In this document: positions 1,148-26,454 of the stretch, piece after piece | Layout of the letters: every line of letters begins with the position of its first letter | How positions within the stretch are numbered: the first letter of the stretch is position 1 | Source: a virus | Lineage: Duplodnaviria > Caudoviricetes | Reading direction: 5' to 3' (one strand) | Virus record (IMG/VR): IMGVR_UViG_3300020686_000001 | Coordinates: 1 to 56,674 of that record | Length of the DNA stretch: 56,674 nucleotides | The notes under the pieces: model-generated | Database searches by the model: none | Told to the model about the DNA's origin: nothing | Seen by the model: only the letters and a program-made list of their open reading frames with translations | Position numbers and translations under genes: made by a program

Positions 1148-1151
1148 CTCA

Positions 1152-1240
1152 TTCTCCTTAATTAACTGCCCCATGCAGTAATGACATTGGAACATGGATT
1201 ATCCACTTACGCAAGAAATATTTATAGGTGCTTTCCCTAA
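1152..1240 (-). promoter_or_regulatory. Promoter/leader cassette (inverted paralogue of 8161-8250)
   Basis: Reverse complement reads TTAGGGAAAG..CCTA..TTGCGTAAGTGGATAAT..TTACTG-loop-CAGTTAATTAAGGAGAA. Confidence 0.75.
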
Positions 1241-5252: not shown

Positions 5253-5457
5253 TGTATTTTTCTTTCGCTAGGGCTTTGTTGGCTTCAGCACTTGCAATAA
5301 GCTCATTGGCATGTTTGATTACAGAACGGAATTGCCCAATTGATATGCAAACTGTCTGAGCATCCATTCCACTAGCCAATCCATCTGCTGAAAAACAAAT
5401 AAAACCGCTGTCGCTAGCATAAATCTCAATGCCATCTTGTGATGGAAATTCAAGCAT
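5242..5457 (-). CDS. Hypothetical protein
   Basis: 71-aa ORF with AAGGAG RBS. Confidence 0.65.
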   Translation of the reverse strand: MLEFPSQDGIEIYASDSGFICFSADGLASGMDAQTVCISIGQFRSVIKHANELIASAEANKALAKEKYNAK

Positions 5458-5509
5458 TTACTACTCCTTTATCCAAAGTTGATTAATCCAGCATCCGCTG
5501 GTACTTCTA

Positions 5510-5737
5510 TTACAAGTTAGTCCATACAAACTTATAAAGATTAGGGCAAAGCTGTTTTCTGGTTACTTTGCCGTTTGTTAACTCTTCAATCCGAGAGGCT
5601 AAAACAATAAGACGATACTCTGGTATCCCATGTTTAAGCCAGTTGGTTACAGTTGGCTGAGTTACACCACACATGTAAACAATCTCTTTTTGTCCGAGTA
5701 ATTTTACGATTTCTTTAAATTTCATAAATTGCATCAT
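5510..5737 (-). CDS. Cro/YdaS-like HTH regulator
   Basis: GVTQPTVTNW..HGIP HTH and TNGKVTRKQLCP tail; first gene of the divergent arm; start codon uncertain. Confidence 0.75.
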   Translation of the reverse strand: MMQFMKFKEIVKLLGQKEIVYMCGVTQPTVTNWLKHGIPEYRLIVLASRIEELTNGKVTRKQLCPNLYKFVWTNL

Positions 5738-5742
5738 AAACC

Positions 5743-5819
5743 TTTTAAAAATAATTTGCAAACATTTTAAAAATAACTTATAGTTTTACTTACGACATAG
5801 TGTCGTTAAGGAGAAAATT
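5743..5819. promoter_or_regulatory. Divergent control region: sigma70-like promoter, direct repeats, leader hairpin, RBS
   Basis: TTGCAA-17-TATAGT; TTTTAAAAATAA twice (5743, 5765); ACGACA-TAG-TGTCGT; TAAGGAGAA. Confidence 0.75.
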
Positions 5820-6026
5820 ATGACTGATGCAGAATTGTTTCACGCAGAACGAGAACGGGAGTTCCTTTTAGAACGGGCTTTGGAGCGTATGGAGTCTGGC
5901 ACATTAACCGCAGATGATATGGACATCATCAGATTTGAATGCGGTAAACCTAATCAACCATGCCACTCAAAGCAAGTCCTTTCGGATGTATTTGCTGACT
6001 TTGGCAACATTTTTAGAAAGGCTTAA
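5820..6026 (+). CDS. Hypothetical early protein
   Basis: Strong RBS, 68 aa. Confidence 0.7.
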   Translation: MTDAELFHAEREREFLLERALERMESGTLTADDMDIIRFECGKPNQPCHSKQVLSDVFADFGNIFRKA

Positions 6027-6027
6027 T

Positions 6028-6666
6028 ATGGCTATTATTGCGTCAACAAGTGGAGGGGGCGACTTTCAACTAGCCCCATCAGGTAACCATTTGGCTCGTT
6101 GCTATCGCATCGTAGATATGGGTAGCCATCAAAACTCTTATGGCAATACCCTCCGCAAGATTCTTGTATCTTGGGAATTGCATGGTGAAGATGATGATGG
6201 GAATCCTTTGACTACAGCCGATGGGAAGCCTTTAATCATTTCAGGCAACTATACCCTTAGCTTGTCTGAAAAAGCAACTCTGAGAGCCATTTTGGAGTCT
6301 TGGCGTGGCAAACCATTTACTTTGGAAGAGTTGTCAGGTTTTGACATTACTAATCTGTTGGACAAATGGTGCATGGTAACCATCAGCCACGATACCAATG
6401 ACAAGAACAAAAAGACTTATGCCAATGTCAAGGCGGTATCACCTGTTCCTGCAATTATCAAAAAGAATGGGTTACCTGATGGTGTTAACAAACATACAAG
6501 CTTGTCATTAGAGGCTGATACATTTGACCAAGGTTTGTTTGATTCTTTGTCCGATGGCATCAAGAAAAAGATTATGGAGTCACCTGAGTATAAAAAGCTC
6601 AGCAGCACCCCATTTGTAAAGCCAGTAGCGGATCTAGCTACTATGGATGATGATGTCCCATTTTGA
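6028..6666 (+). CDS. Phage single-stranded DNA-binding/replication protein
   Basis: P.G.HLARCYRIVDMG N-terminus; SLSEKATLR..LESWRGKPFT; acidic DDDVPF tail. Confidence 0.7.
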   Translation: MAIIASTSGGGDFQLAPSGNHLARCYRIVDMGSHQNSYGNTLRKILVSWELHGEDDDGNPLTTADGKPLIISGNYTLSLSEKATLRAILESWRGKPFTLEELSGFDITNLLDKWCMVTISHDTNDKNKKTYANVKAVSPVPAIIKKNGLPDGVNKHTSLSLEADTFDQGLFDSLSDGIKKKIMESPEYKKLSSTPFVKPVADLATMDDDVPF

Positions 6667-9907: not shown

Positions 9908-11671
9908 TTATGGAGATTCATTAGACTGAGAAGACAATGCACTACCAACTTGTGATAGAGCGCCTGAAACTGCAGGCTGTGTTGCTTTAACAGCTTCAGG
10001 TCGCTCTCCTGTTGCAACAGTGTTTATCAGTTTTCTTGACAATGGGTTGTAAACAGCGCCTGTCATAAGAGCAGGAATAGCAAGCCCCGGCAAACCTCCT
10101 GCAGCGCCTGTAGTTCCATGAGCAGCTAAATCTGTCAAAGCTCCCATTACACCAACACGACCTGCAGTTCCGCTATCAGGAACAGCTTTCCCAAGAACAT
10201 CTTGAATGTCTTGAGCTTCTGACATCATTCTGCCTGAACTAGAACCTTTTTGAGCCGCTGTAGACATTCCACGAGCAGATGCCAATAGTTGAGCAGGATT
10301 AAATACATTTCTATTTGATACAGCTCCTGCGCTTCCTGAAGCTTTGTTAATACGCAAATAGTCTTTAAAGAAATCATGAATACCATGCAACTCTTTAGCA
10401 TGAGCAGGATTAATTTCAGCTAATTCTTTACGCAATCCTTGCTGAAAGTCTAAAAGAGCATATCCAACGCCACGCTCACTAGCAGAAGTGCTTGTGCTTA
10501 ATCTGTGAGCAATAGTACCAATTGTGCTTTCAATGTCTCTGAATTGATGACCACTTAGCTCATAATTTGAACCTTCTCCAATCAAAGGCTCAAAAAACTT
10601 ATCTTTAACAATGCTGTTGAAAGTTTCCCTTTCAGCAGGAGTTAAATTTTTAGTAGCTGCAAGAGAAACTTGAGTCAAGTTGGGAATGGTATTTTTTGTA
10701 GGAATGAAATGAATTTTGTCGGCAATATTGTCATAAGATTCATTAACTTTATTTTGAAGATGCTCCATCATGTCTGTACCAGCCTTAACATCTTTAGGAA
10801 GCTTTTCACCAATATGAGACAAAGCTTTGTTTGCCACTGATTTATTCATTTCTTGGTTGACATTTTCAAGCTCTTTATTAATCAACCATCCCGAAATAGG
10901 CAAACTTGTGAGCTTCTTTTCAAACTCAGGAAAACCTAATAATTGCCCCGGTGTAAGGTTCTTCATGCCAAAGTCTTTAAGCATTTGAACCTTTTCAGCA
11001 ACTCTAGGATTTAAAACTGCTTGACTGAGTTTTCCTAAACTACCACCGACAACAGCGCCTGTACCTGTGTTTAAAAGCTTTTCTCCCAGCATATCAGAAT
11101 AGCTTTGATTTTGGTTTTCAGGAGTTGTAACAGGAGCTAAAGCAGATTGTCCTGCACCCATAGATGCGTATTTGGCAAATGGAGAAGCTTTGGCAACCTT
11201 TTGAGCAAAATCAGCAATTTTTGGAAGATATTGAGCGTTTGAAAGATATTGAGCTACCTGTGGGACTTCTGAAATAGCTCTAGTTGTAGCGCCAATGGGC
11301 AATACTTGACCCGTTACATCTAAAGCCTTTGCAGCTCCTGAGCTTGGTCCTTCTTCAAAACGCTTAGAAAGACGATTTAAGACTTCTGCAGGAGCAGTGA
11401 TGCCACCATATTCCGCTAAACCTGCAAATGGCTTCATAGCCCCTATAGCAAGCTGTGCGGTTGGATGTGGGTGTTGAAATAGCTCAGCAGGTAAATTCTC
11501 AACAACTTTGTCTGCAAAATTAAGCTTTTGTGGAGCTTTTACATTTTTGATTTCAGGAACAGGCTCATTACTGTCCCATTCGCTACCAGATATGGGAGTA
11601 GCCCCCTTGGGCAAAGGTGGCAAATTACTATTAAGTGGAACAGCGCCTTCAGGGGGTGGAGGTAAACTCAT
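9908..11671 (-). CDS. Putative internal virion / DNA-ejection protein
   Basis: Last late gene; Ala/Gly-rich helical; LTPGQ and VPDSGTAGR motifs; start MSLPPP. Confidence 0.6.
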   Translation of the reverse strand: MSLPPPPEGAVPLNSNLPPLPKGATPISGSEWDSNEPVPEIKNVKAPQKLNFADKVVENLPAELFQHPHPTAQLAIGAMKPFAGLAEYGGITAPAEVLNRLSKRFEEGPSSGAAKALDVTGQVLPIGATTRAISEVPQVAQYLSNAQYLPKIADFAQKVAKASPFAKYASMGAGQSALAPVTTPENQNQSYSDMLGEKLLNTGTGAVVGGSLGKLSQAVLNPRVAEKVQMLKDFGMKNLTPGQLLGFPEFEKKLTSLPISGWLINKELENVNQEMNKSVANKALSHIGEKLPKDVKAGTDMMEHLQNKVNESYDNIADKIHFIPTKNTIPNLTQVSLAATKNLTPAERETFNSIVKDKFFEPLIGEGSNYELSGHQFRDIESTIGTIAHRLSTSTSASERGVGYALLDFQQGLRKELAEINPAHAKELHGIHDFFKDYLRINKASGSAGAVSNRNVFNPAQLLASARGMSTAAQKGSSSGRMMSEAQDIQDVLGKAVPDSGTAGRVGVMGALTDLAAHGTTGAAGGLPGLAIPALMTGAVYNPLSRKLINTVATGERPEAVKATQPAVSGALSQVGSALSSQSNESP

Positions 11672-12921
11672 TTGACAGCCTCGCCAGTATCTTGATAAAC
11701 CCAACCAGTATTGTTTGAATTAGGAATAATTACCCTGTTATTCAAAATATGTGCGCTTGGATGAGGAGCAGAATTTTGTGGGGCAGGATTGTTATTTCCA
11801 TAAGAAGATGCCAATTTAGTAGCTCTTATTTTGGCTTTCTCCAATGTCTCATTAATTAAGTTCAAGTTGTAATCAAACTCTTTCTTAGACATATTTGGAT
11901 TAATCTTAGCAATTGCGTCAGTAATTTTATTGCCTTCAGCATTTGATAGTGCGCCCAATCCACGCATAGATTGAACATTATTCAAGAATGTGCCTGATTT
12001 AAGTTGGTCTATCTGTTCTCTAAAATTGTATACATCAGTGCCGGGAATCATTTTTCTTGGATCAAGAGCCATACCAAGACCATTTTCTCTTCCCGGATGA
12101 TTTTTAATTTTTTCAATTGTTTGTTGTACAGATTCAGCAGAAGCAATAGCCTGATCCCGAACATTTTCAGCTTTTCCTTGTTGTTCACGCTGAGTTTGTT
12201 CATACATCATCTTTTTAAGGTCAAAACCTTGCTGAGCAAGCATGGCTGAAATCTGTTTGGTAGCCATCTTATCGTTGCTTGTTGTGTAAAGCTGAAGCAT
12301 TTGCTGACCTAATGCATTGGCTTTTTCTTCATCAATCTCGCCATTTTTATATTTGCTTTGCAAGACTTTTGCTTGACCTGAAATTACTGGATCATCTACA
12401 GCAGTCAAAACATCAAATGGGGTTGATTCAGCGTTAGCTGTACCATTAATCAAAGACCTGATTCTTGGTGCATTTTTAGCAATTTCAACAACATCTTTAA
12501 TTCCATTTGGAGATAAAGAAGCAATATTAGCAATTGCTTTCTTATCTGTAGGATTAGAAATAAAATCGTTAGTAGCTTGTTTTAATGCCGTTTTTTCTGC
12601 TAATTGAAGATTTTGGCTTGCAACTTGCGCTCTCATTTGAATAAGACTTGGCAATTGCGCTTCATTAGCTTGTTGTTGTTTTCCAAGCTCTTCAGCAAAA
12701 TTGCCAGCAGATTCACCAAAACTACCTGTGCGAGTAGGCTTCAATAAAGCACCAGTAGCTGCCCACCAATTTGTAGATGGGTTAATTCTTTGCATTAATG
12801 CATCAGAAGCGGCTTTGTTAGCAAGGCTGAATTCATTCCTAGCATCTCCAACAGAATCTAAATATGATGGAGATGATTGTTGATTATCTGAAGAATCATC
12901 TGTAATTGTAGGTAGTGCCAT
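11668..12921 (-). CDS. Putative internal virion / ejection protein
   Basis: Q/A-rich helical; GLGALSNAEG motif seen in DNA-transfer proteins. Confidence 0.6.
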   Translation of the reverse strand: MALPTITDDSSDNQQSSPSYLDSVGDARNEFSLANKAASDALMQRINPSTNWWAATGALLKPTRTGSFGESAGNFAEELGKQQQANEAQLPSLIQMRAQVASQNLQLAEKTALKQATNDFISNPTDKKAIANIASLSPNGIKDVVEIAKNAPRIRSLINGTANAESTPFDVLTAVDDPVISGQAKVLQSKYKNGEIDEEKANALGQQMLQLYTTSNDKMATKQISAMLAQQGFDLKKMMYEQTQREQQGKAENVRDQAIASAESVQQTIEKIKNHPGRENGLGMALDPRKMIPGTDVYNFREQIDQLKSGTFLNNVQSMRGLGALSNAEGNKITDAIAKINPNMSKKEFDYNLNLINETLEKAKIRATKLASSYGNNNPAPQNSAPHPSAHILNNRVIIPNSNNTGWVYQDTGEAVK

Positions 12922-12931
12922 AATTTATTCC

Positions 12932-14542
12932 TTAAGGTCCAACATAATCTGGGCTACTAAAGTCAATAGGATTGTTTACAACACTACCGCCACCTGTACC
13001 ATATGTTGGATCTGTATAAACATTTCCATCTTGTCCTAATATTTGACCTGCACCTGCACCGCCATTAGCACCAGTTCCTTGAACAGGTGCTCCCCAACTT
13101 GGATCTACAGGTAATGCTACAGTTGTTTTTCCTTGATTAGCAGCATCAATTGCAGCTTGGCATTTGCTATTTGATGAAATTGATACACCATTAATTAACT
13201 TTCCTAATCCTGTAGCAAGCGCTCCACCAAGTGTTCCGCAAGATGTTTTTGCATTCATAAGTGCTGCTGCTGTTGTTCCAAGGGCTGAAATTTGAGCCAA
13301 TGGCGATGTAGCATAAGCACCGGGGATTGGTCCAGTATAAGTAGATGAAGTAGCTGTAGGAATGGTGTAACCACGCAATAAAGCAGACTCGTTTGTAAGT
13401 TGTTGCATTGGGTAACATTGAGCGTTTTGAGCAATTGTTTGCTTTTGTTGACCCAATGTAGCCAAAGCATTTGTGCAAGCAATACCAAGACCTGAAGTAG
13501 TTTTAGCTTGGCAAGTAAGTTGAGCGCCTGCTTGAAGCTGTAATTGCTCTTGTGCTTTTGCAGCACATAGCGCTTGACTGTAACCTTTTTGCAGAGCACA
13601 AGCCTGTTGAGCAGTAATTCCAAGACCTGCATTAGCTAAAGTTTGCCCTAATGCTTGAGCACCACGAGCTGAGCCAAATTGACCTGCGCCTACAATACCT
13701 GCAGTGGCTTGTGGGGCAATATTTTGAGCAATATTAGCTTCGCCAAGGTTTCCAATAGCATTAACTACACATTTTGTGTAAGGACTCATATAGCTTTGAG
13801 CTAATTGAGAAATGCAAGAATTAGCCACGCCTTTAGCAGTATTAATACCTGCATTTAATGTAGGTTGATAATTTCCTGCATTGTTAGCAACTTGATTAAA
13901 AGCTTGATTTTGTAAATCAGTAGCTCCAACATATTGAGCACCTTGAGCAGCAGCAGTTCCTGATTTAGCAATATTATTAAGATAACATGTATAGAACTGT
14001 GGAGCAGCAGTTGTAGCACTTTGAGTAGTGGTAATGTTAGGTAAAGCACCACCTTGGGTTAAAGTGCCTTGTGTGCTAGATCCTGCTGTAACGCCTAAAT
14101 TAGGAGCTACTGCACCCTGAGCTGTTCCTGTAGGAGCATATGTTGATAATGGATTTGGTGTTAAATTAGGCGATGTATTAGCTAAATTAGGCGATAAAGA
14201 TCCTGCACCCATTGATCCTACTGATGTAGGGGCAGCATTTGTTGCATAAGGATTAGCTTGTGGTGTTGTATAGCAATCTCCAATAAAACCTGTGGGCAGG
14301 GCTGATTGTTGCATTCCAGCATTGCAAACTTGAGGTGATTGAATAGGTTGACCTACTTGGCTTAAATATTGTTGATAGCTATTCCCCATGACTTTAGATG
14401 CAGGACTATTAGCCCACTGCTCCTGCGTCATTGCAGGACCTTGATTAGAATAACAAGTCGAAGGGGCAACTGCATTTGGAATTGTAGCTACTGGAGATGT
14501 AGTATTTCCCATACAGGAAGCGGATAAATTTGGTAATGCCAT
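12932..14542 (-). CDS. Putative ejection (pilot-like) protein, Cys-studded
   Basis: Q/A/G-rich; YMSPY...AGQFGSARG motif; 14 isolated Cys. Confidence 0.6.
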   Translation of the reverse strand: MALPNLSASCMGNTTSPVATIPNAVAPSTCYSNQGPAMTQEQWANSPASKVMGNSYQQYLSQVGQPIQSPQVCNAGMQQSALPTGFIGDCYTTPQANPYATNAAPTSVGSMGAGSLSPNLANTSPNLTPNPLSTYAPTGTAQGAVAPNLGVTAGSSTQGTLTQGGALPNITTTQSATTAAPQFYTCYLNNIAKSGTAAAQGAQYVGATDLQNQAFNQVANNAGNYQPTLNAGINTAKGVANSCISQLAQSYMSPYTKCVVNAIGNLGEANIAQNIAPQATAGIVGAGQFGSARGAQALGQTLANAGLGITAQQACALQKGYSQALCAAKAQEQLQLQAGAQLTCQAKTTSGLGIACTNALATLGQQKQTIAQNAQCYPMQQLTNESALLRGYTIPTATSSTYTGPIPGAYATSPLAQISALGTTAAALMNAKTSCGTLGGALATGLGKLINGVSISSNSKCQAAIDAANQGKTTVALPVDPSWGAPVQGTGANGGAGAGQILGQDGNVYTDPTYGTGGGSVVNNPIDFSSPDYVGP

Positions 14543-14544
14543 AA

Positions 14545-17500
14545 TTAACCTTTCGAGTGCCGTTTTAAGGCTTCTTTCATATATTGTAAAGGAGAAGCCT
14601 TTGGAGGGATACTATGATTTGGGGCTGAACGCTTATGCTCCCGTAGCGCTTCTCTAAAATGGTCTAGGAGTTTAGCCCCAGCATCGCTTGAACCATTTCC
14701 CAAAGCAGCCACAGTATCAGCGTCAAAAACATACTCACCATCAGCCAGCATAGCAGGAATATCATCAGATTGACCATCCCCTTTTCCTTTTACATAATGT
14801 CCTGTAGCTCCTGTAATAAATTCAGGAATATGCTCAGTTTCCCCATGTCTTTCTAAAATAGCATCCCTGCTACCACCCTCTCTAGCTACAGGAATATTGG
14901 GGGTTGGATCGTTTTCATTCATAGCAGCTAAAGATGTCTGATACAGAGGAGAGTTTGGGTTTGTATTTGCAGATGCCTGTGGTTGAGCGCCAACTAGATT
15001 TGATGGTTCTTCAGATGCAGAAGTAGCCCCTAAATTGATTCCTAAAGCTTGAAGGATTCTAGGGTCTAATTGCTGTAATTTCTTTAAAATTTGAGAATTT
15101 GAGTTATACACAGGTGCTCCTGCTAAAGATTGGCTTGTTAATGGGGTTGGCAAAGCTCCTTTTGAGCTATTGCATACAACTTGTGGTGTTGATGTAGGTG
15201 TGCAAGTAGTCTTAGTTGTCGTTGTAGTTCCACCTGTAGTTCCACCTGTAGTTCCACCTGAACTTGGAGCAACAACAACTGTTCCACCTGATGTATCTGT
15301 GGGAGTTGTAACAGGTGTAGTTTCTGTACCATTTCCACCTGAACCACCTGCGCCTGAACCATCTCCTGAAACAATTCCATTGCCACCTGATCCATCACTA
15401 CCTGTTGATGGATTTACAACAGGCAAAGCCCCCGTTCCACCGCCAGAACCTTCAGTAGGGGATGGATTTACAACAGGTAAAGCACCTGTTCCACCACTTG
15501 TTCCACTGCTTGGAGTAGGATTGGTTGCAGGTGGTTGCTCAGAAGGAGTTGGTGTAGCTCCACCACCGCCACTTGTTCCACCGCTTGGATTTTCAGGTAA
15601 AGGTAAATCAGGAACTATAGTATTGTCAGGCGTTGAAACTGGTGGCACATAAGGAGTTCCATCTTCATTTACAGGCTGACCATCAGCATTTACATAACCC
15701 GTTGGGCTAGATGTTGAATCATAAACTTCTGATCCTGCAGGTGTTTGAATAGTCGTATTGTTATTTATATCTTCAGGAGCACCAGTTATTGATACATTTC
15801 CACTTGGAGAAACATATCCAATATTATTATTAGATGCACTTTGAGTGCCAGTTCCAACAGCATTTGAAGCATCATTTTGACCCTGTTGAATAGCATTTAG
15901 CTCTGCATTGGTAAATCCTGAATTATTTCCTGAAACACTTCCATTACCACCTGATCCATCACCACTTGTCGATGGGTTTACAACAGGTAAAGCTCCTGTA
16001 GTAGGATTGCAAACAACTTTAGACGCTTGATGGCTATCTAAATATGCTTGATAATTGGTATTATTATTTATGCCAAGAGCACTAGCATTATTAAAATCTT
16101 GTAGATTTGTAAATCCTTCATTTATTGCTGTGGAGTAAGTATTACCACAAGAAAAACCAGCAGCTTTTGCATCATTGTATGTTTTAGCATCAGGAAATCC
16201 AGAAGACATTGCAACTTTATAATCACAAGTATTTGAAAATCCTGATTTATTAGCAGCTATTTCATTTATGCTATTGATATAGGCATTACTTATCTTACAA
16301 TTACTTAATCCACCTGCAGTCAAGTCACCATTATTAATTTTGCTTAAATTTGCAAGGTCATTAGTAAGTTTGCTGTATGAGCACTGAAAAGCAGTTTCTG
16401 ATGAAGTATATTTGCTAAGTTGGCATTTTAATGCAGAATTATTTGATTGATAATCATTTTGTAATGATTTTATGTCAATAGAATTTGCTGATGATGCACT
16501 TTGTTGTGCTTTTTGCAATAGTGGTGTAATTTGATTGTTATATATACAAGTTAATTGGTTATTATCTTGATAAAATGTTGCAATATCAGAATTATATTTT
16601 GGTATAAGTTGATTTAATTGATTTGCATACATATTTGCATAATTCAAATAACAAGTATTCCAAGGGTTTTGATTATATGCATTAGAATATACATTGTATG
16701 CAGATAGAGTTTGGTTGTACGCATTATCATCCTGTTTGATGATACATTGGTAAGCACTAACTTGATTTCTTAAATTAGAAAAAGGACTACATAATCCTAC
16801 TGCATTGTTATAATTTTGATTATCTATTTTTGCTTGATTATATGTTGAAAGCGCATCATTTAGCGATGTTTGTGATTCAAGTGCTTTGTTGTATGTGCAA
16901 TTTAATGATTTAATTTCACAAGATAGACTATTGTATTCACTTAGAACATTGGGTTGTAATGATGAAATATCAGATGTAATTGAGCCAGTTTCTTGAGATA
17001 AAAGTTTTCCAATATCTGTATTTGCAAAATCAGCACCAGTTAAATTTCCAAGATCAATTTTATTATTGATGTTTTGAAAATTATTGTAATTTTTAGCTTG
17101 TTCAGCTAATGCTGATAATCCGTTTTTTGCTTGACAAGCAATTTGTCCCATAAGAGCACCACCGCCACCAATCAATGCTCCAGATGCTATACATCCACCC
17201 TTTACTGCAGCGCCTAAAGCACCACTTCCAGCTCCTGTAATTAGATTTGATGCGTTAGATCCTAATGCTGGAGAAATAATACATTTTGCAGCATTTGATA
17301 ATTGTCCTAATCCTGTACTAAAGGCAGTATTGGTCAAAATAGTCATTGGGTCAGCACCAGAAGCTGCTGCCTTAGATGCTGTTACTAAAGCTTGTGCCAT
17401 TGGTTGCGCTACTGATGCAGACACAATTCCATTAGAGGTTAAATACGATGAAATGCTACTTACAGATGCGCCTGTTAAACCTCCCATTACAGCGCCAGCC

Positions 17501-18057
17501 AAAATAGCTTTAAGTGGATCTTGACCTGTTATAGCTGCTTTTACGCCACCTAATGTACCGCCTGTTAATGCTCCATTTCCTGCTGCAGTTAACATAGCTT
17601 GCACAGCAGGACTTAATGTTGAAGAAGCTCCTGCACCAACGCCACCAAAGGTTAATCCTGTTCCTGCAGCACCACCTAATCCACTTACACCCGTACTAAG
17701 AGCACCTGTTCCTGTAGTAAGACCTATACTTGATCCAGTAGCAGCTCCTGTGGTTGATCCACCTGCTAATATTGCATCTGCAGTAGGTGTTATGGATGCA
17801 CTTCCTGTTCCAGCTAAAGCAGATCCTCCTTCTACACCCAATGCTTCTGGTTCTAAATCAACAGTCCCAAGTGAAGCAGCTGTAAGAGCAACAGCTCCCA
17901 CCATAGCCCAACCACCGGGAATAACTTGATTTACAAATTTATCTACACTAGCACCAACTTTACCGATTGCAGCACCGGGGTCAATAGAGGCAAGTGTTGC
18001 AGATCCTTGTTGAACAATGCTACTAATACTTTGCGTATTTTTCGATACCCAACCCAC
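14545..18057 (-). CDS. Large putative ejection protein, Cys-studded, with C-terminal SDDIPAMLADGEYV domain
   Basis: GTG start; G/A-rich hydrophobic N-terminus, N/Q/Y coiled coil, P/G/T/S linker; 17 isolated Cys. Confidence 0.65.
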   Translation of the reverse strand: MGWVSKNTQSISSIVQQGSATLASIDPGAAIGKVGASVDKFVNQVIPGGWAMVGAVALTAASLGTVDLEPEALGVEGGSALAGTGSASITPTADAILAGGSTTGAATGSSIGLTTGTGALSTGVSGLGGAAGTGLTFGGVGAGASSTLSPAVQAMLTAAGNGALTGGTLGGVKAAITGQDPLKAILAGAVMGGLTGASVSSISSYLTSNGIVSASVAQPMAQALVTASKAAASGADPMTILTNTAFSTGLGQLSNAAKCIISPALGSNASNLITGAGSGALGAAVKGGCIASGALIGGGGALMGQIACQAKNGLSALAEQAKNYNNFQNINNKIDLGNLTGADFANTDIGKLLSQETGSITSDISSLQPNVLSEYNSLSCEIKSLNCTYNKALESQTSLNDALSTYNQAKIDNQNYNNAVGLCSPFSNLRNQVSAYQCIIKQDDNAYNQTLSAYNVYSNAYNQNPWNTCYLNYANMYANQLNQLIPKYNSDIATFYQDNNQLTCIYNNQITPLLQKAQQSASSANSIDIKSLQNDYQSNNSALKCQLSKYTSSETAFQCSYSKLTNDLANLSKINNGDLTAGGLSNCKISNAYINSINEIAANKSGFSNTCDYKVAMSSGFPDAKTYNDAKAAGFSCGNTYSTAINEGFTNLQDFNNASALGINNNTNYQAYLDSHQASKVVCNPTTGALPVVNPSTSGDGSGGNGSVSGNNSGFTNAELNAIQQGQNDASNAVGTGTQSASNNNIGYVSPSGNVSITGAPEDINNNTTIQTPAGSEVYDSTSSPTGYVNADGQPVNEDGTPYVPPVSTPDNTIVPDLPLPENPSGGTSGGGGATPTPSEQPPATNPTPSSGTSGGTGALPVVNPSPTEGSGGGTGALPVVNPSTGSDGSGGNGIVSGDGSGAGGSGGNGTETTPVTTPTDTSGGTVVVAPSSGGTTGGTTGGTTTTTKTTCTPTSTPQVVCNSSKGALPTPLTSQSLAGAPVYNSNSQILKKLQQLDPRILQALGINLGATSASEEPSNLVGAQPQASANTNPNSPLYQTSLAAMNENDPTPNIPVAREGGSRDAILERHGETEHIPEFITGATGHYVKGKGDGQSDDIPAMLADGEYVFDADTVAALGNGSSDAGAKLLDHFREALREHKRSAPNHSIPPKASPLQYMKEALKRHSKG
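15362..16000 (-). repeat. Intragenic repeats encoding GALPVVNPS (x3) and DGSGGNG.VSG (x2)
   Basis: Repeated peptide and DNA (e.g. ggatttacaacagg, ccacctgatccatcac). Confidence 0.75.
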
Positions 18058-18510
18058 TTAGGCACTCCTTGTCAAATTAGTAACAAGCATCATAGCTCCT
18101 TGTTTAGGGTCATTAGATGGCTCAATAGCTTGATTTTGTAATTTATATTTTTGTAATAGTTTTTGAGTATAGCTATCTGAAAAATAAGTTATTGCTTGTG
18201 TATATCCTTGTTCGTGTAAAAACGAAAAAAATACAAGACAATTGTATAAAAATGTTTTTAATGGATCGCCATTAACTGAATGGTATTTAATTATTCCATT
18301 ACTATTTTCAAATATAATAAATAATGTATTGCCAACTCGTTTAAAAGTTGCACCATTGGTTTTAAAATTTGTTAATGCAGTGATACCTTGATCTAAAGTA
18401 ACACCCAATCGTTTTCCATTAACAGCAATATCTTTTTTAACAATGTCCTCTATAGACATTTGTTTTGTAGACTTAAACTTTTCACCAAAGTGTTTTGATG
18501 AGTATTTCAT
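18058..18510 (-). CDS. Hypothetical protein (position of T7 gp13/GNAT-like assembly factor)
   Basis: Lies between nozzle and ejection genes; AT-rich; fold not confirmed. Confidence 0.55.
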   Translation of the reverse strand: MKYSSKHFGEKFKSTKQMSIEDIVKKDIAVNGKRLGVTLDQGITALTNFKTNGATFKRVGNTLFIIFENSNGIIKYHSVNGDPLKTFLYNCLVFFSFLHEQGYTQAITYFSDSYTQKLLQKYKLQNQAIEPSNDPKQGAMMLVTNLTRSA

Positions 18511-19208
18511 GCCACCACCTGCAAATATTTAGTGTCATCAGTTTTGTTTGGGTGAAAGCTTGCAAAGTAAACGCCAAGCATCGGAATAAGCACATTTGAT
18601 GTTACAAAAATTAACCAAGAAAACATTTCAAACCATGTTTTTAGTTTGAAAAATTGTTTCTCTTCTTTTGTTTTTGAAATTGTGTATCCAATCAAAAACT
18701 TCATAACATATTTTTGATTTATAAAAGCAATCTTTTTAAGATTTGAGCGTGGATAACCTAAATGATCCCATAAATCAATAGCAAGACTCTTATGCCCTAA
18801 CTCTTCTTTAGCATGCCAACAAAATAATTTGTAATCTCTATCATCAACATGATTCCAGCGATTTAAAACTGATCTAGACATACATGATGCTAGATGTTCG
18901 ATAGATACCATAGTTCCAAGCCAAAATTTTAATCCCGGCTTTTTGTTGATAGCTTTAGTTTTTTTAAACTCAAGCATTTCTAAGTCAACTAAATTATGAC
19001 GCTTATTAAATGATTCATGAGCAGATGCATGAGCAAGCTCTTCCTTTTTAAATTGAATCATTCTATTTTTAAGCTCTATATCTGTTACTTTTGGCAAATA
19101 ATGATCTATTACAGTTGCAAAAGCCCTTTCCCATGCAGGGAAAAGAACACTTGAGGCATTTCCATAATGTGTCCAAATTGGAGAGTTATCACACCAGTAT
19201 TTAGTCAT
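18507..19208 (-). CDS. Ferritin-like 'predicted metal-dependent hydrolase' (PF10118-type)
   Basis: FP.WE..F, EELAH...H, SIEHL, WHAKEELGHK diiron-type motifs; start MTKYW with ATGA overlap. Confidence 0.8.
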   Translation of the reverse strand: MTKYWCDNSPIWTHYGNASSVLFPAWERAFATVIDHYLPKVTDIELKNRMIQFKKEELAHASAHESFNKRHNLVDLEMLEFKKTKAINKKPGLKFWLGTMVSIEHLASCMSRSVLNRWNHVDDRDYKLFCWHAKEELGHKSLAIDLWDHLGYPRSNLKKIAFINQKYVMKFLIGYTISKTKEEKQFFKLKTWFEMFSWLIFVTSNVLIPMLGVYFASFHPNKTDDTKYLQVVA

Positions 19209-19459
19209 GAAAATTGCCCTGTAATTGGAGTAATAGACATGATACCAACTAGAGCTGCAGCCCACTGTTGCCAACTTCCAAAGTTTCTACCATCGGGAAT
19301 ATCGGACTGACCAAAGTATCCAATGCCATTCATGCCTGCTGCCCATTCTTTCCATCTTTCTTCAGGCACAGTTCCTAACTGATTACCAGCAAATTGCTCA
19401 GCCATCAATGCACACCATTGATCCCAAGTCATGCCTCTAGGGTCGTATGTAGTTGCCAT
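19205..19459 (-). CDS. Conserved Trp-rich virion-associated protein
   Basis: YDPRGMTWDQWC...WKEWA...WQQWA. Confidence 0.7.
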   Translation of the reverse strand: MATTYDPRGMTWDQWCALMAEQFAGNQLGTVPEERWKEWAAGMNGIGYFGQSDIPDGRNFGSWQQWAAALVGIMSITPITGQFS

Positions 19460-21225
19460 TATGGGTTACCTGTAGAACGAACATCACCAACATCAGCACT
19501 TAATAAGACATTACCCATTTGATAATTTCCACCATAGGTATTACTCTCAAATCGTAAGCGCATCTCACGATACTGCTCTTTCATATCTATCTTAAGAGTT
19601 GATGGGCTAAATACATAAGGACTATATTGGCTTGTAGCATCTGTATCATCAGCATAGCCTTTACCTTTAACATATAAGTTCATATTGCCCGATTGAACAA
19701 AGTCAGGCTCAACACGCTCTAAACGGATATAGTTGTTAGGTCCTTCAGGTTTGACCATTCCTGGACCACCTCTTACCCATCCTAAGCTATTTGTTTCAAA
19801 ATAAGATTGAACAGCATTAGTATTGGTCAAATAAACTTGGTCAGTGCCAATTTCATGTTGCCAAAGAGTATAGGTATTCGAGCTATTTGCAACATTGTCA
19901 GCCCAAATAGGGTATTTGAAAACTTCTGAGAATACGCCTGCAGAACGATTAGCACCCTGTGCAAAGCCTGCGTCATACCATACTTGTTCACGCACATTAT
20001 AAATAATAGCGTTATTACATTCTGTAGCATTTCCTGAAGGGTAAAACCACCAAATTTCACCCCAACGAGGAATCTTCATTGCCCATACTTTTTGGCGTTG
20101 AGCAAAATTTAAGTTATCAAAAAAGAAATTTTGATTTACTGCATTAGGAACTTCTTGAACAACTCCGTTATACATTAAAAATCGGTCAACACCTATCCAA
20201 TAATAGATGCCATCATATTCAATCACGCAATTGGATGACATGATAGAAGTTTGCGTAGATATGATGTCATAACGCCAATAAATAGTAGCTGTTCCTACTG
20301 TCTGAGGTGAATAAGTAACACGGGTAAGTTGGTCAAGACTCCAAAATAATCCTGCAGGAGATGTTGTACCACCACGCAATGGAAGACCTTTTACAACTTT
20401 TGTAGATGAAACTGTGTTTATGTTTGAGTCAGGAGCTACCCAGTTATAAAAGTTTCCTGCTGAATTGTTTTGAATTAATCCATTGTTTCCATAAACAAAT
20501 AGATAAGGATAGAGCATGCAAGCTCCACCTGATACAGAAATATTGTTATCAAATGTCAGCGTCTGAGAGCCTGAAGTTCCGCTACTAGATAAAATGACTG
20601 TTGTAGTTGTTCCTGATACAGAGGATGAAACTACAGTTGTTCCTGCGCTTAATCCACCACCGCTTACAGACTGACCAATATTAATCAGATAGTTGGCTGA
20701 AGCAATAGTAAAAGTTGATCCAGAAATCGTACCAGTAGCTGTAAATACTCCAACCTTAGATAAAGCTCCACCGGGGAACTGACCATATAAAACAGGTGTA
20801 TTAACAGTGTTATCAATGTCTGCTAAATTTTGCCCCGGATGTGCAACAACATTAAGGTTTCCTGATCCATTCGGATCATAACCAATATCAAACTGCCAAA
20901 GATTATTAGCATTTACTGTAAAGTCAGATGGCAATGAAATGTTTGTAGGGCCAAATCCAACACCATTGGTATTATTGGTTTGCCACATCTGTAAATAGCT
21001 TTTGCTACCAGAGTAGAAGTAGTTAAGACCTAGTTGAGATTGCATGGTCATGCCACGACTAATCTCTGATGCATTTAAGAAGATACCATTGTATCCACCA
21101 ATTTTACGAGGGCGACCACGCTGAAACCTGACCCACATGCCATCTACATATTTGTCAGAGTCAAATTGAGTACCATCCCGTTGAATACCGGGCTTGATAT
21201 TCAGAGATATGACATTAGTGGTCAA
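19459..21225 (-). CDS. Tail nozzle / P22 gp10-like stabilisation protein
   Basis: KPGIQRDGT, WVRFQRGRPRKIGG, EIWWFYP; beta-propeller-like; position. Confidence 0.7.
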   Translation of the reverse strand: MTTNVISLNIKPGIQRDGTQFDSDKYVDGMWVRFQRGRPRKIGGYNGIFLNASEISRGMTMQSQLGLNYFYSGSKSYLQMWQTNNTNGVGFGPTNISLPSDFTVNANNLWQFDIGYDPNGSGNLNVVAHPGQNLADIDNTVNTPVLYGQFPGGALSKVGVFTATGTISGSTFTIASANYLINIGQSVSGGGLSAGTTVVSSSVSGTTTTVILSSSGTSGSQTLTFDNNISVSGGACMLYPYLFVYGNNGLIQNNSAGNFYNWVAPDSNINTVSSTKVVKGLPLRGGTTSPAGLFWSLDQLTRVTYSPQTVGTATIYWRYDIISTQTSIMSSNCVIEYDGIYYWIGVDRFLMYNGVVQEVPNAVNQNFFFDNLNFAQRQKVWAMKIPRWGEIWWFYPSGNATECNNAIIYNVREQVWYDAGFAQGANRSAGVFSEVFKYPIWADNVANSSNTYTLWQHEIGTDQVYLTNTNAVQSYFETNSLGWVRGGPGMVKPEGPNNYIRLERVEPDFVQSGNMNLYVKGKGYADDTDATSQYSPYVFSPSTLKIDMKEQYREMRLRFESNTYGGNYQMGNVLLSADVGDVRSTGNP

Positions 21226-22475
21226 AATGTTCCTCCACTAAGACCAACTGTAGAGGTAATTGAACCAATAACATAAAGACCAGCACTATAAAAATACCCT
21301 ACTTGTGTTCCTGAAGATGAAAAACCTACTTGACCAGTAGTTGGGTGATAAATACCTGTATTGGCATCACCAGTAAAGTTAATAGATGGTACTGAAGGTG
21401 ATCCTGTACCAATTGTTATAGTTGTATATGAATTAGATGATCCTGAAGCAGCGTTATACACATTCGTGCCATCGCATACCAAAATTAAAGAATTGCTTTG
21501 TGGAATAGTTACAGTAGCCCCACCAGTTACAGAAGTTTTAACAGTAAATGTATAAGATCCTGTTGTATTGTTTGTAAATGTATAAAGCTGAACTGTAGAA
21601 GGAACAACAATGGTTTGATTGCTTGTTAAAGTTCCTGTGTAAATTTGAATAGTATTTGATGCTTGAGTAGAGCTTAAAGTGGTAGTGCCACCTGTAACTA
21701 CTAATGCTAATTCTGTATATGAAAACTGATTTGATCTACCATAAGCATAAGAATACCAACCTGCTGTTGTTCCGCTTGAAACAAGAACAATAGATTCATT
21801 TAATTGAAGCTGTTGAATTGAATTTCCATCAATAGTATCAGTACCATTTGGTTGTAATGTCAAAATACCAGCACCATCATTTTTGAAAATAGTAAACCAG
21901 TTAGCTCCAACAGTTGATGCAGATGGCAAAGTAAATGTTCCTGCCCCACCTGTCCATACATTCATTTGCGCTCTTGCAGTAGAGCTTAATGTTGTATTTG
22001 AAGAATAAGTTGATACATAATATTGCTGATTTAAGGTATTTCCAATAGCTGTTAAACCATAACCTGCTAAAGAAGATGCATTTGCAGCAGATGTTCCTGC
22101 TCCAAAAGTTACAGTTGCCCATGTTCCATCAACAAATGCGGTAACAGTATTGTTTGTTAACCAAATGTAATAAGCAATTCCTGAAGTTGCTGAAACAATA
22201 GTATTTCCAAGATTATCGGTAATTGTAAAAGGATTTGATCCAATATTACGAACAATAATTGCTTGACCAACTGATACCTGAGCTGCTGTAGGCATCAACA
22301 ATAAAAGACCTGTTGTCGTTGCTGTTACATCAACAATATTTGTAGCTACAGTAGTGGAATTTGTGCCATTACTGGGCCAAGATAGGGTTGTGCTTGCAGA
22401 AATGGTTAAAGATTCATAACCAACCTGAGAGGGTGTGATTGTTTGACCTGTAAAGGGGCTGGTGTATGTCGTCAT
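21222..22475 (-). CDS. Tail structural/fibre-like protein
   Basis: T/S/G-rich; FTLP...GANWF..FKN.G.G..T..P.GTDTIDG module; PSINFTGDANTGIY. Confidence 0.65.
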   Translation of the reverse strand: MTTYTSPFTGQTITPSQVGYESLTISASTTLSWPSNGTNSTTVATNIVDVTATTTGLLLLMPTAAQVSVGQAIIVRNIGSNPFTITDNLGNTIVSATSGIAYYIWLTNNTVTAFVDGTWATVTFGAGTSAANASSLAGYGLTAIGNTLNQQYYVSTYSSNTTLSSTARAQMNVWTGGAGTFTLPSASTVGANWFTIFKNDGAGILTLQPNGTDTIDGNSIQQLQLNESIVLVSSGTTAGWYSYAYGRSNQFSYTELALVVTGGTTTLSSTQASNTIQIYTGTLTSNQTIVVPSTVQLYTFTNNTTGSYTFTVKTSVTGGATVTIPQSNSLILVCDGTNVYNAASGSSNSYTTITIGTGSPSVPSINFTGDANTGIYHPTTGQVGFSSSGTQVGYFYSAGLYVIGSITSTVGLSGGTF

Positions 22476-24800: not shown

Positions 24801-25013
24801 TCATTTTCCAATAAAGTGACTAATTAATGTTGCTGCAAAGTTTGGTCCAAGCAATACAGCTCCAATGACTCCATAAAGCAAGTATTCAATCTTTTGCATA
24901 CGACCAACGCCTTTTTTGAGGGCTTCTTGAATTCCCTCGTAGCGTTCAGCACATACAGCTTCGTGAATTGACAATCGCTTATCCGTTTCGGCTACGAGAG
25001 TTTCCATATCCAT
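24801..25013 (-). CDS. Coiled-coil plus TM protein (lysis accessory)
   Basis: HEAVCAERY followed by a hydrophobic C-terminus. Confidence 0.65.
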   Translation of the reverse strand: MDMETLVAETDKRLSIHEAVCAERYEGIQEALKKGVGRMQKIEYLLYGVIGAVLLGPNFAATLISHFIGK

Positions 25014-25015
25014 GA

Positions 25016-25339
25016 TTAACTTACATTAGATTCTTGGCTAACTGCAGGAGTGCAAGTTGTTGGTGTTACTGTAGCTTCAGGAGCTTCTTCAGCAGGAATA
25101 TCTACAACAACAGGAACTTCTACAACAGTTGGGGGAGCAATAACTACTGGAGTTGGATCAGCAACAACGGATGGGAATGTTGATTCTCCATTTGGGGCTA
25201 ATGGATTTGGAGGTAAAACAATAGCTGGACCAGGTTCTTTATACTTTATTTCCAAGTAATCAACAAATTTATGAAGCTCAGATTCAGCTTGAGTTTCAAA
25301 GGTTGCAATATGCAATCGTATTTCTTTTAACCAATTCAT
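25016..25339 (-). CDS. Pro/Val/Thr-rich hypothetical protein
   Basis: 107-aa low-complexity ORF. Confidence 0.6.
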   Translation of the reverse strand: MNWLKEIRLHIATFETQAESELHKFVDYLEIKYKEPGPAIVLPPNPLAPNGESTFPSVVADPTPVVIAPPTVVEVPVVVDIPAEEAPEATVTPTTCTPAVSQESNVS

Positions 25340-25557
25340 GATGGAGTTCCTTCTGTGGATTGAGGGGCTTCAACTGTAATTTCTGCAGGAATTTCAACAG
25401 GAACTTCAGGATTAGCATTAGCTTGTTTTGCAGCCTCAAGCTGTGAATTAATCTTTATAAACAAAGGAAAAGCTTGTGAGTTTGTTGGCATATTGCCTAA
25501 AACATTGACAATATCTTGTACTTCTGCGTCAAACAAGTTTAAAGTTACATTGAACAT
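25336..25557 (-). CDS. Hypothetical protein (tail-fibre assembly region)
   Basis: 73-aa ORF downstream of fibres. Confidence 0.6.
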   Translation of the reverse strand: MFNVTLNLFDAEVQDIVNVLGNMPTNSQAFPLFIKINSQLEAAKQANANPEVPVEIPAEITVEAPQSTEGTPS

Positions 25558-25582
25558 TCTTTAATTTCCTAAAAAATTCCTG

Positions 25583-25828
25583 CTAAACTGGGGTAGCAGA
25601 TTCCCCGATAATGATTGTAGATGTTTCTTTATCAATAGTCATTGAGCCAAAACAACATATGTTCCAATCGTCACTGTTTGATTCTCTTTCAGAGAACGAA
25701 GGCACATTAATTTTAACTTGTTTTGCCAAAAATTCTTGATTGTTTTCAAACACTCGCCATACATGGTCAACAGTTCCACGCCCTATTTGACCACGACTTT
25801 TATTGAATCGTATGCGGTACTTGTTCAT
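25583..25828 (-). CDS. Conserved hypothetical protein
   Basis: RIRFNKSRG..GRGT.DHVWRVFE. Confidence 0.7.
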   Translation of the reverse strand: MNKYRIRFNKSRGQIGRGTVDHVWRVFENNQEFLAKQVKINVPSFSERESNSDDWNICCFGSMTIDKETSTIIIGESATPV

Positions 25829-26454
25829 ATCACAATAGGCTTTGGTAGTTCAGGAGCAGCCATAATTCCAAGATTAAAATGAAGGAACTTAAATGGCTTA
25901 TCTGACCCATTTCTAGTAAAAGAATGAGGTAACCAAGAGTTAGAAAAAAGCAACATACCATTCTCAGGCTTAAAGCTCACCATATTGGTTGATTGAGTGA
26001 TTTTTGAAGTATCAGCCTCAGTCATACTAGCTTGAACCTTGCCTACCCTTGGATCATGAACAATGATTTGAGATGAGTTTTCAGGACAATCTATAAAGAA
26101 AAATCCTGATATTTGCGCTCCAAGGGCATGAATATGCTCATCCATACTAGAATATTTATAGTGCTCTTGACCCCAAATTTCATGAAAATAAGTGATTTTG
26201 CCATCCATTTTGTATCCTTGAGCGTTAAGGATATTCCATGCTGTAGATGCAATGTAAGACAAAAACTCATTCAATCTAGAATCTGTAGCCATATTACCAG
26301 TCATAATTGCAGGGTAAAGTTCACTCATTTTTGACTTATCTTGCATTGCAACATATTCTTCAAATATGGGGGCTACAACCTTTAAAAATTCAGGCTTTTT
26401 AATGGTATGGATCGTTGTAACAAAGTACGACGATGTAACTAAGTTATCTTGCAT
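25825..26454 (-). CDS. 2OG-Fe(II) oxygenase (TIGR02466-like)
   Basis: H.H...ISGFFF, DPR, P..G.LLF.NSWLPH motifs. Confidence 0.8.
   Translation of the reverse strand: MQDNLVTSSYFVTTIHTIKKPEFLKVVAPIFEEYVAMQDKSKMSELYPAIMTGNMATDSRLNEFLSYIASTAWNILNAQGYKMDGKITYFHEIWGQEHYKYSSMDEHIHALGAQISGFFFIDCPENSSQIIVHDPRVGKVQASMTEADTSKITQSTNMVSFKPENGMLLFSNSWLPHSFTRNGSDKPFKFLHFNLGIMAAPELPKPIVI

Follow-up and report, generated by a model that had tools for sequence, protein, structure and literature searches.

Why would a phage load with cysteine the very proteins in which this residue is usually suppressed? The question is raised by two adjacent genes, here called E1 and E2, in the ejection-protein operon of the virus of IMG/VR record IMGVR_UViG_3300020686_000001. 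The window, that is, the whole stretch of DNA analyzed, comprises the entire record (56,674 bp, with direct terminal repeats and an estimated completeness of 100%), and the virus is a complete podophage of the P22/T7 style. No part of podophage infection is less well understood than the ejection proteins, whose complete lack of Cys has previously been taken as the mark of a route through an oxidizing periplasm. The paper on phage DEV presents Cys suppression as a conserved feature of ejection operons, describes it for Schitoviridae, and ascribes it, citing an earlier suggestion, to passage through the disulfide-forming periplasm; the frequencies given there are 0.865% Cys for the proteome versus 0.00075-0.0055% for ejection proteins (PMC11445570). 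E3 and E4, the next two proteins of the window operon, show this suppression, as do 251 of 317 members of the E2 family; E1 and E2 do not. In a 2022 review of ejection proteins, the strings cysteine, disulfide and acylat occur 0 times (PMC8954989), and we found no description of Cys-rich ejection proteins in the literature.

A sequence-only reading of this DNA had counted 17 Cys in E1 and 14 in E2, and both numbers are exact. In E1 (1170 amino acids), 15 of the 17 lie within residues 259-683, in a stretch rich in Asn, Gln, Ser and Tyr. E2 (536 amino acids) combines its 14 Cys with only 12 acidic residues (Asp plus Glu), again as counted earlier. The Cys make up 1.5-2.6% of the window proteins and are all isolated, with no CC; CxxC is absent from both proteins, and 14 of the 31 Cys are followed by Tyr, Ile or Gln, which agrees with the earlier description. 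The repeats in which Cys was said to stand where sister repeats have Asp or Asn were also found in place, both the first set (TGQDPLK at 177, SGADPMT at 233 and KGGCIAS at 286) and those of period 14 (GFPDAKTY at 620, GFSCGNTY at 634 and GFTNLQDF at 648). The two neighboring ejection-type proteins had rightly been called Cys-free: E3 has none, and E4 has none when read from its likely ATG start at 11671, a single Cys appearing only when it is read from a TTG at 11704. Genome-wide, 49 open reading frames (ORFs) contain 125 Cys in 16,483 residues, or 0.76%. Measured against the other 47 ORFs (94 Cys in 14,777 residues), the binomial probability of at least 14 Cys in 536 residues is 1.3e-5 and that of at least 17 in 1170 residues is 1.7e-3. 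The excess is far larger when set against the E2 family's own baseline, 251 zeros among 317 proteins, than against the genome.

Is this composition peculiar to one virus? Searches with E2 recovered 680 relatives at E <=1e-5 among 8,000 candidates, and 1,652 clusters (50% identity) for the family at E <=1e-3. The distribution of Cys among these relatives is bimodal. Of 317 unique proteins pooled, 251 have no Cys, 62 have at least 5 (up to 43), and just 4 have between 1 and 4. The 121 aligned sequences (the window, 119 hits and MW202545, the nearest deposited genome) divide into 92 with no Cys, 27 with 10-43 and 2 with 1-2. Similarly, the best 150 representatives at 50% identity comprise 125 proteins with no Cys, one with 1-2, one with 3-4, three with 5-9 and 20 with at least 10. 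Both E1 and E2 are visible in 83 loci: both are Cys-free in 54, E2 alone is Cys-rich in 17, both are Cys-rich in 12, and a Cys-rich E1 with a Cys-free E2 occurs in none. In a later set, one locus, L124 (9410-11076; L and G numbers denote the related viral loci and genomes compared with the window), is the sole case of a Cys-rich E1 (12 Cys in 276 amino acids) followed by a Cys-free E2 homologue (278 amino acids). All E3 homologues (70 of 70 loci) are free of Cys. The predicted E1 and E2 of the window belong, in our interpretation, to a minority class of thiol-bearing alleles in protein families whose default is the total exclusion of Cys.

Some relatives go much further. In L003 (5569-9508), E1 has 120 Cys in 839 amino acids (14.3%) and E2 has 43 in 472; both carry TGPVC, CCEPPVCC and CKPKD repeats together with a CCSSCCSGCC tail, and these Cys arrays correspond to tandem DNA repeats of 12-78 nucleotides. 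In MW202545, which has a CSCCCSCCC string, the Cys number 36 in E1 and 33 in E2. Set beside the stated rule, the literature search and these extreme relatives, the window proteins are thus the mild end of an undescribed exception. This exception seems to have arisen more than once: on an E2 tree computed with Cys masked (136 rows), 7 changes of Cys state are needed and well-supported branches force at least 3 of them; the unmasked tree (65 rows) needs 2. Judged from sequence, the class of Cys-rich E1/E2 is real, selected and recurrent.

Which residues do the Cys replace? We compared the 232 Cys cells of Cys-rich members in the E2 core (272 well-occupied columns) with the residues found there in Cys-free homologues. 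Asp accounts for 18.1% of the latter (background 1.8%), Asn for 17.7% (7.8%) and Gln for 20.6% (14.0%), that is, a tenfold, 2.3-fold and 1.5-fold enrichment, respectively. For E2, this bears out the proposal of the sequence-only reading that Cys has replaced Asp or Asn. Eight of the window E2 Cys fall in the conserved core, where the Cys-free homologues have Asp, Asn or Gln, with one Leu. Counting residues in the 92 Cys-free homologues, C356 corresponds to an invariant Asp (92/92) and C186 to Asp in 83 and Asn in 9; Asn predominates opposite C344 (60) and C258 (53, with Ser in 19 and Asp in 14), Gln opposite C315 (58, with Ala in 20) and Leu opposite C376 (66, with Asn in 19). Two further columns are often gapped: C243 (Asn 21, Asp 9, gap in 46/92) and C326 (Gln 26, Thr 13, gap in 43/92).

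The columns used differ between lineages and converge on a few positions. The lineage comprising the window, L003, L069 and L008-L019 has Cys at columns 243, 258, 315, 326, 344 and 356; the L038 group, which is nested in a Cys-free clade on the tree, has them at 186, 216, 234 and 356; and MW202545 has them at 216, 234, 356 and 403. All three lineages share Cys at the invariant-Asp column 356, and there are overlaps at N216 and N234. The invariant Asp 356 has turned into Cys in at least three lineages. For E1, residues 230-720, which hold 15 of the 17 Cys, have no homologue at E <=1e-5 among 7,999 candidates of 643-2,048 amino acids, so that its Cys columns can be tabulated only via internal repeats; in these, Asp, Asn and Cys occur at the same repeat position. 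At the N-termini of E1 relatives, of which only the first ~20 columns can be aligned, Asp is enriched 2-fold and Glu is not, which is weak evidence for an exchange of acidic residues for Cys there.

The exchange alters the charge of the protein. The E2 core has 8.1 Asp plus Glu and 6.3 Lys plus Arg in Cys-free members, versus 3.8 and 9.4 in Cys-rich members. Its net charge is -1.8 ± 1.8 in the former and +5.6 ± 3.8 in the latter, and works out at -3.0 ± 3.2 when every Cys is given a charge of -1. The basic residues gather around the Cys: Lys or Arg occupies 11% of positions at -4, 8% at -1, 13% at +3 and 12% at +4, versus a background of 3.5%, and 59% of all Lys and Arg lie within 4 residues of a Cys versus 28% expected. 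The same tendency is seen in the window itself, where 11 of the 15 Cys in E1 residues 241-700 have a Lys or Arg within 4 residues (5.3 expected; p 0.003 from shuffles), as do 6 of the 14 Cys in E2 (2.7 expected; p 0.04 from shuffles). A Cys-Lys pair at i, i+3/4 would stabilize a thiolate or an acidic oxidized form.

On what grounds can E1 and E2 be called ejection proteins? The genes at 9908-19459 on the minus strand, in the order g84, PF10118, g150, E1, E2, E3 and E4, make up a predicted ejection-protein operon (Table 1). Successive stops and starts overlap or are at most 13 bases apart, with ATGA at three junctions. The sequence-only reading had placed the PF10118 gene and the 150-amino-acid ORF directly upstream of E1, which is correct: g84 to PF10118 and PF10118 to g150 are ATGA overlaps, and g150 abuts E1 (TAAGTG). 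Because of these junctions, and because the only strong terminator found on the operon strand follows E4, co-transcription of the operon is likely. The gene order, namely g216, the tail-fibre-like gene, the phrog_3287 protein gene, g84, a variable slot and E1-E4, is common to the great majority of 85 viral loci, each marker being present in 68-84 of them; the ejection genes thus directly follow those for the tail and its stabilization. The depositors of MW202545 labelled the gene at the position of E4 as encoding a transglycosylase SLT domain protein. The C-terminal ~200 amino acids of E1 are conserved (55-93% identity in relatives), and its residues 1078-1134 match phrog_6090, a short tape-measure-like stretch; apart from this, E1 and E2 match no Pfam or PHROG family, and the E2 profile matches no PDB entry and no solved ejection protein. 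We read E1-E4 as a putative ejection-protein set, to which E1 and E2 are assigned by synteny and composition, not by homology to a characterized protein.

We found no nucleotide similarity of the window to isolated phages, and we know of no cultured member of its group. The only matches to E2 in cellular genomes come from three metagenome-assembled genome contigs (L100-L102) labelled beta proteobacterium, Hyphomicrobium and Burkholderiales; two of these contigs measure ~55-57 kb, like the phage itself, so that they probably represent phage genomes that were binned, not prophages. Burkholderiales and Caulobacter-type bacteria are weakly suggested candidate hosts. One 49-kb record, G051 (L158-L160), has an ejection/tail block at both ends (573-6356 and 42495-48644), in diverged copies that differ in protein length.

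Table 1. Predicted features of the window in the ejection operon and its surroundings, with the 2OG oxygenase pair and the packaging genes
Feature	Positions	Strand	Remarks
Terminator-like hairpin and T run	9884-9867	-	Just after E4; likely end of operon
E4, 587 aa from ATG at 11671	9908-11671	-	ATG overlaps the E3 stop as ATGA
E3, 417 aa	11668-12921	-	phrog_2534, 'released from the phage upon host infection', E 1.2e-26
E2, second ejection-type protein, 536 aa	12932-14542	-	
E1, first ejection-type protein, 1170 aa	14545-18057	-	
g150, conserved family of ~120-165 aa	18058-18510	-	In relatives, located in the slot that precedes E1
PF10118 protein, 233 aa from ATG at 19208	18507-19208	-	
g84, conserved small protein	19205-19459	-	Upstream edge of the variable slot
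phrog_3287 structural protein	19459-21225	-	
Tail-fibre-like gene	21222-22475	-	
81-aa protein	25583-25828	-	Travels with the 2OG oxygenase
2OG-Fe(II) oxygenase, PF13759	25825-26454	-	E 2.1e-11, 44.5 bits versus cut-off 27
Large terminase	51902-53314		
Portal-like protein, 868 aa			

What could the thiols be for? We tentatively favor an oxidative, intermolecular cross-linking of E1 and E2 after they leave the cytoplasm. In the Cys-rich class, Cys has been selected at conserved Asp, Asn and Gln positions and, in most cases, a Lys stands one turn of the helix from it, a geometry that would favor reactive thiolates of low pKa. These thiols would stay reduced while the particle assembles in the cytoplasm and, once outside it, would undergo an oxidation-driven covalent chemistry, the favored form of which is intermolecular disulfides between the first two exiting proteins, either in the periplasm or in the released virion. 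Links of this kind would act as a lock or ratchet on the outer portion of the conduit. The two proteins that would have further to travel, E3 and E4, remain Cys-free, a compartment logic that we borrow from synteny with T7 and P22. We prefer cross-linking because exposed thiolates entering an oxidizing periplasm react, because the extreme relatives resemble cross-linked matrix proteins, and because only the first two proteins are affected.

Several points weigh against this proposal. Among the 62 Cys-rich E2 proteins, Cys counts are even in 33 and odd in 29, and correlations between columns track lineage and do not define exclusive pairs. The absence of an even-number bias and of exclusively paired Cys columns makes ordinary intramolecular structural disulfides unlikely, and we rejected such pairs for E2. 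The general rule of Cys suppression itself implies that disulfides harm ejection proteins. No gene for a sulfhydryl oxidase or a thioredoxin-fold protein was seen among the window ORFs scanned, which are a part of the total. The choice of Asp/Asn columns and the flip in core charge better fit a sulfinate or a metal ligand.

A bolder rival is the formation of sulfinate. Here, O2-dependent enzymes of the phage would turn the thiols into sulfinate, a mimic of Asp, through a programmed S-oxygenation, and the charges would be gained after translation or assembly. Candidates for this role are, in the window, the PF13759 2-oxoglutarate (2OG) oxygenase with its 81-amino-acid partner and, in sister lineages, cupins that resemble thiol dioxygenases. 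Of all the explanations, sulfinate best accounts for the use of Asp columns, for the charge balance and for the presence of oxygenase genes: the Cys sit at Asp/Asn columns, the core recovers a negative net charge if each Cys carries one, and Lys at i+3/i+4 has the geometry of a salt bridge. We nevertheless regard S-oxygenation as unlikely, as it would need unprecedented enzymology and its best candidate enzyme is missing from the window. ADO and PCO are known to act on an N-terminal Cys only and CDO on free cysteine, and 2OG oxygenases are not known to oxygenate thiols.

The enzyme genes themselves give a mixed answer. The presence of the 2OG gene tracks the Cys-rich alleles best, which is suggestive. 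It is found in 15 of 50 related records, namely 13 of 19 that are Cys-rich and 2 of 31 that are Cys-free, and the six Cys-rich records without it are all 28-38% complete. When the comparison is restricted to records at least 90% complete, with MW202545 and the window, the gene is present in 5/5 Cys-rich and 2/9 Cys-free genomes. A contrast of gene content between 5 Cys-rich and 8 Cys-free complete genomes also singles out the block at 24801-26454, which in the window comprises the 2OG gene and genes for proteins of 81, 73, 107 and 70 amino acids, as the most specific to Cys-rich genomes. The co-occurrence that the sequence-only reading had proposed to test is seen in the records; however, because the tree allows only 2 phylogenetically independent contrasts, too few to reach significance, the association is suggestive and not demonstrated. 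The PDB relatives of the window 2OG protein, 2rg4 and 3bvc, are uncharacterized proteins, and its match to TIGR02466 (53.5 bits) is below the cut-off of 62.5.

The 2OG gene and its partner, a protein of 80-92 amino acids with a WN[IL]CCFG motif, form a mobile pair (L114 6715-7649, L124 6747-7639, window 25583-26454). In the window, this pair is found ~6 kb before the slot; L114-L118 and L124 have it within the slot, where the order is g84, 2OG, partner, g120, cupin A, cupin B, GNAT and a Cys-rich E1. Beside the 2OG block of the window, the 107-amino-acid protein (25016-25339) has a Pro/Thr-rich end with TTCTP, the same pentapeptide as that around Cys952 of E1 (residues 950-954), which may be a coincidence.

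In sister lineages, two cupins of ~160 amino acids and a GNAT are encoded directly upstream of a Cys-rich E1. Sixteen contigs combine a cupin pair in the slot with a visible E1; this E1 is Cys-rich (10-31 Cys) in all 16, and 15 of these contigs also have the GNAT-like gene. The matches of these cupins are mainly to thiol dioxygenases. A first profile search of the PDB returned six matches, all of this type (PCO5, PCO4 and CDO; E 0.16-1.3), and a deeper alignment returned nine, of which eight were thiol dioxygenases (ADO, CDO and PCO5; E 0.26-1.6). Pfam PCO_ADO (PF07847) ranks top or near the top for both cupins, and the nearest named Atlas clusters are a PCO_ADO-bearing cluster (0.95) and CDO_I (0.91). 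Residues H60, H62 and H115 are invariant in 33/33 sequences, with a CDO-like spacing. Yet all of these matches are weak, the Pfam scores (14.6 and 16.2 bits) are below the cut-off of 27, and an NCBIfam scan of the cupins gave no match. Position 66 is Glu, Asp or Asn, mostly Glu or Asp, whereas thiol dioxygenases are without Glu there.

The distribution of the cupins also counts against S-oxygenation. The window and three other complete Cys-rich genomes (L013, L069 and MW202545) have none; we rejected the possibility of a cupin hidden elsewhere in the window, since no match was found at E <=10 with a profile that recovered both copies in the positive control G037. Phages of other types have the same pair at more than 30 loci that are remote from ejection genes, and the complete genome G051 has the pair (32717-33671) and yet ejection-type proteins with 0 Cys. 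Cupin pairs were observed in L119-L122, L125-L137 and L139-L155, and adjoin a protein of ~770 amino acids in L119, L120, L139, L144 and L146. In its boldest form, S-oxygenation would make Cys a programmable aspartate: neutral thiols would be packaged and then turned enzymatically into sulfinates, giving the ejection machine an oxygen-gated charge switch. We hold this version to be quite doubtful; if true, it would be the first case in which enzymes convert Cys to sulfinate at multiple sites of a structural protein.

Could the Cys instead have no dedicated function? The ban on Cys might be lifted where hosts or habitats do not oxidize thiols (no DsbA, anoxic water), and Cys would then be gained neutrally or through repeats. 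That Cys-rich alleles cluster on the tree, that the extreme cases expand through tandem repeats and that the window E1 Cys fall in a fast-evolving, homologue-free region would all be expected. However, drift predicts ~0.6-0.8% Cys spread over all columns and not 2.5-14%, intermediates are nearly absent (4/317), the same invariant Asp/Asn columns are hit in separate lineages together with co-placed Lys, and E3 and E4 of the same phages stay at exactly 0 Cys. A lack of function fits the bimodality and the convergence poorly, and we judge it improbable.

A role in metal-thiolate binding seems rather improbable as well. Layers of Cys in an oligomer, or terminal Cys strings, would hold Zn, Cu, Fe or Cd and thereby stabilize or trigger the ejection proteins. 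The CSCCCSCCC and CCSSCCSGCC ends of relatives and their metallothionein-like composition are in keeping with this idea, as are the exchange of hard-ligand Asp/Asn for a soft ligand and the negative charge of thiolate-metal sites, which fits the charge deficit. In the window, though, the 31 Cys are isolated, their neighboring Lys are atypical of metal sites, and we saw no gene for a metal chaperone or transporter in the ORFs scanned.

The remaining rivals involve the variable slot between g84 and E1, which contains a small g150-family protein in every case and an enzyme cassette in some. The g150 family, of which 14 diverse members were aligned (120-165 amino acids, 12-42% identity), matches no other family; in almost all related loci its gene directly precedes either E1 or the cupin/GNAT cassette, and the idea that this family is a degenerate GNAT was rejected (hhalign probability 0.2%). 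Four cassettes were distinguished. The PF10118 cassette precedes Cys-rich alleles in the window and Cys-free alleles in L046; that of an acyl carrier protein (ACP)-like protein and a ketosynthase precedes Cys-rich alleles in 1 locus and Cys-free alleles in 4; two cupins with a GNAT-like protein precede Cys-rich alleles in 9 loci, all rich in both E1 and E2, and Cys-free alleles in 0; and a GNAT-like protein alone precedes Cys-rich alleles in 6 loci (E2-rich) and Cys-free alleles in 0. The GNAT-like protein matches the acetyltransferase family phrog_1249 (E 1.9e-7). The ACP-like protein (95 amino acids, weak acyl-carrier matches) and the beta-ketoacyl synthase (373 amino acids; Pfam E 4e-15, NCBIfam beta-ketoacyl-ACP synthase E 7e-29) were observed in L034 (5045-6444), L045, L078, L084 and L002 (8211-9589).

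These cassettes suggest S-acylation, in which the thiols would be acylated so that E1 and E2 enter host membranes, with slot enzymes (GNAT-like, ACP-like with ketosynthase, desaturase-like PF10118) supplying or transferring the acyl group. Acyl-related genes do recur in the slot, PF10118 has Atlas leads, and leads only, to diiron proteins of the acyl-ACP desaturase type (0.81-0.85), the N-termini of Cys-rich E1 proteins are hydrophobic Cys arrays, and basic residues near a Cys favor S-acylation. This explanation is nonetheless very unlikely. Cys-free alleles accompany the ACP and ketosynthase genes in 4/5 loci and PF10118 in 8/9, and we know of no established protein S-acylation of this kind in bacteria or phages. 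An N-terminal Gly (MG) is seen in only 16 of the 59 complete, unique E1 sequences and was rejected as a lipidation signal for E1; start calls are uncertain.

The sequence-only reading had also looked to the adjacent PF10118 gene. Its assignment to this family is confirmed by a full-length match at 18507-19274 (profile positions 13-247 of 247) well above the gathering threshold (E 3.6e-37, 128.8 bits versus 33.2). Residues E27, E57xxH60, E104/H105 and E136xxH139 are invariant in 8/8 aligned phage members, and this E, ExxH, E, ExxH pattern is more suggestive of a diiron-carboxylate protein than of a hydrolase. Ferritin-like diiron-carboxylate proteins are characterized by two ExxH motifs and two more carboxylates on a four-helix bundle. 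The Atlas leads point to ferritin-like, FA_desaturase_2, AurF and rubrerythrin clusters, at scores below the 0.9 guideline, and no solved relative was detectable by sequence. In print, we found PF10118 only as a candidate protease group, in a correlation study (PMC8960859). A search from PF10118 gave 13 viral loci, and in 10/10 with downstream sequence the next gene is g150-like. The supposed coupling to Cys-rich alleles was not found and is rejected: the PF10118 and g150 pair precedes Cys-free ejection proteins in all 8 other loci with visible ejection genes, one of which, L046/L087, is from the same phage family and has 0 Cys in both E1 and E2, and other Cys-rich phages are without PF10118. 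PF10118 is thus tied to g150 and the operon head, not to cysteine, and is probably a separate cassette with no part in the Cys chemistry. Modification of the E1/E2 Cys by this enzyme, which its adjacency, translational coupling and diiron-type motif in the window had invited, is on this co-occurrence record highly implausible.

Elsewhere, the window encodes tail-fibre and tail-spike proteins, an endolysin and the 2OG oxygenase. A 1669-amino-acid ORF (46855-51864, minus strand), located between the large terminase and portal-like genes, has a single Cys (0.06%), as counted before, and no Pfam or PHROG match. Being Cys-poor like ejection proteins, it may encode another ejected or internal protein.

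By position and family, E1 and E2 are ordinary ejection proteins, yet they invert the composition rule that defines their class, and this inversion recurs with accessory genes of its own. That a sharply separated class with 10-120 Cys recurs demonstrates that selection can turn the rule around. Cys-rich alleles offer a testable handle on how ejection proteins are held, released or locked, and may reveal a new protein modification in phages. The variable enzyme slot before the ejection genes, with its PF10118, ACP-like plus ketosynthase, or cupin plus GNAT contents, has apparently not been described before.

How do these elements compare with known systems? The window PF10118 protein resembles the 'predicted metal-dependent hydrolase' family in its full-length match and differs from the hydrolase of that name in its diiron-carboxylate-like residues. 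The sister-lineage cupins are akin to thiol dioxygenases (CDO, PF05995; ADO/PCO, PF07847) in their PDB and Atlas neighbors and three-His spacing, and depart from them in their sub-threshold scores and in the Glu or Asp at the Glu-less position. Oxidative folding traps are known from DsbA in the periplasm, from Mia40 import and from the sulfhydryl oxidases of poxviruses and giant viruses. The mechanism proposed for E1 and E2 is alike in that thiols reduced in the cytoplasm would form covalent links in an oxidizing compartment; it differs in that the scanned ORFs of the window include no oxidase gene and that disulfides of E1/E2 are a proposal only. The Erv1/Alr and poxvirus oxidase families appear in a list within PMC10598087.

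With high-sulfur keratin-associated proteins and metallothioneins, the E1 and E2 proteins of relatives share composition only, in repeats with 9-14% Cys and in CCS strings; no homology is claimed, and the window proteins are milder. The Cys-Pro repeats and Cys strings of the extreme relatives give them a composition known from disulfide-cross-linked or metal-thiolate proteins. The closest comparison is with the podophage ejection proteins themselves, P22 gp7/gp20/gp16, T7 gp14/gp15/gp16 and N4/DEV gp71-73. In the window, too, the tail genes are followed by a run of three or four large ones, and E3, E4 and ~80% of E1/E2 homologues obey Cys suppression; E1 and E2 of the window phage and of ~20% of the family depart from it, with 10-120 Cys.

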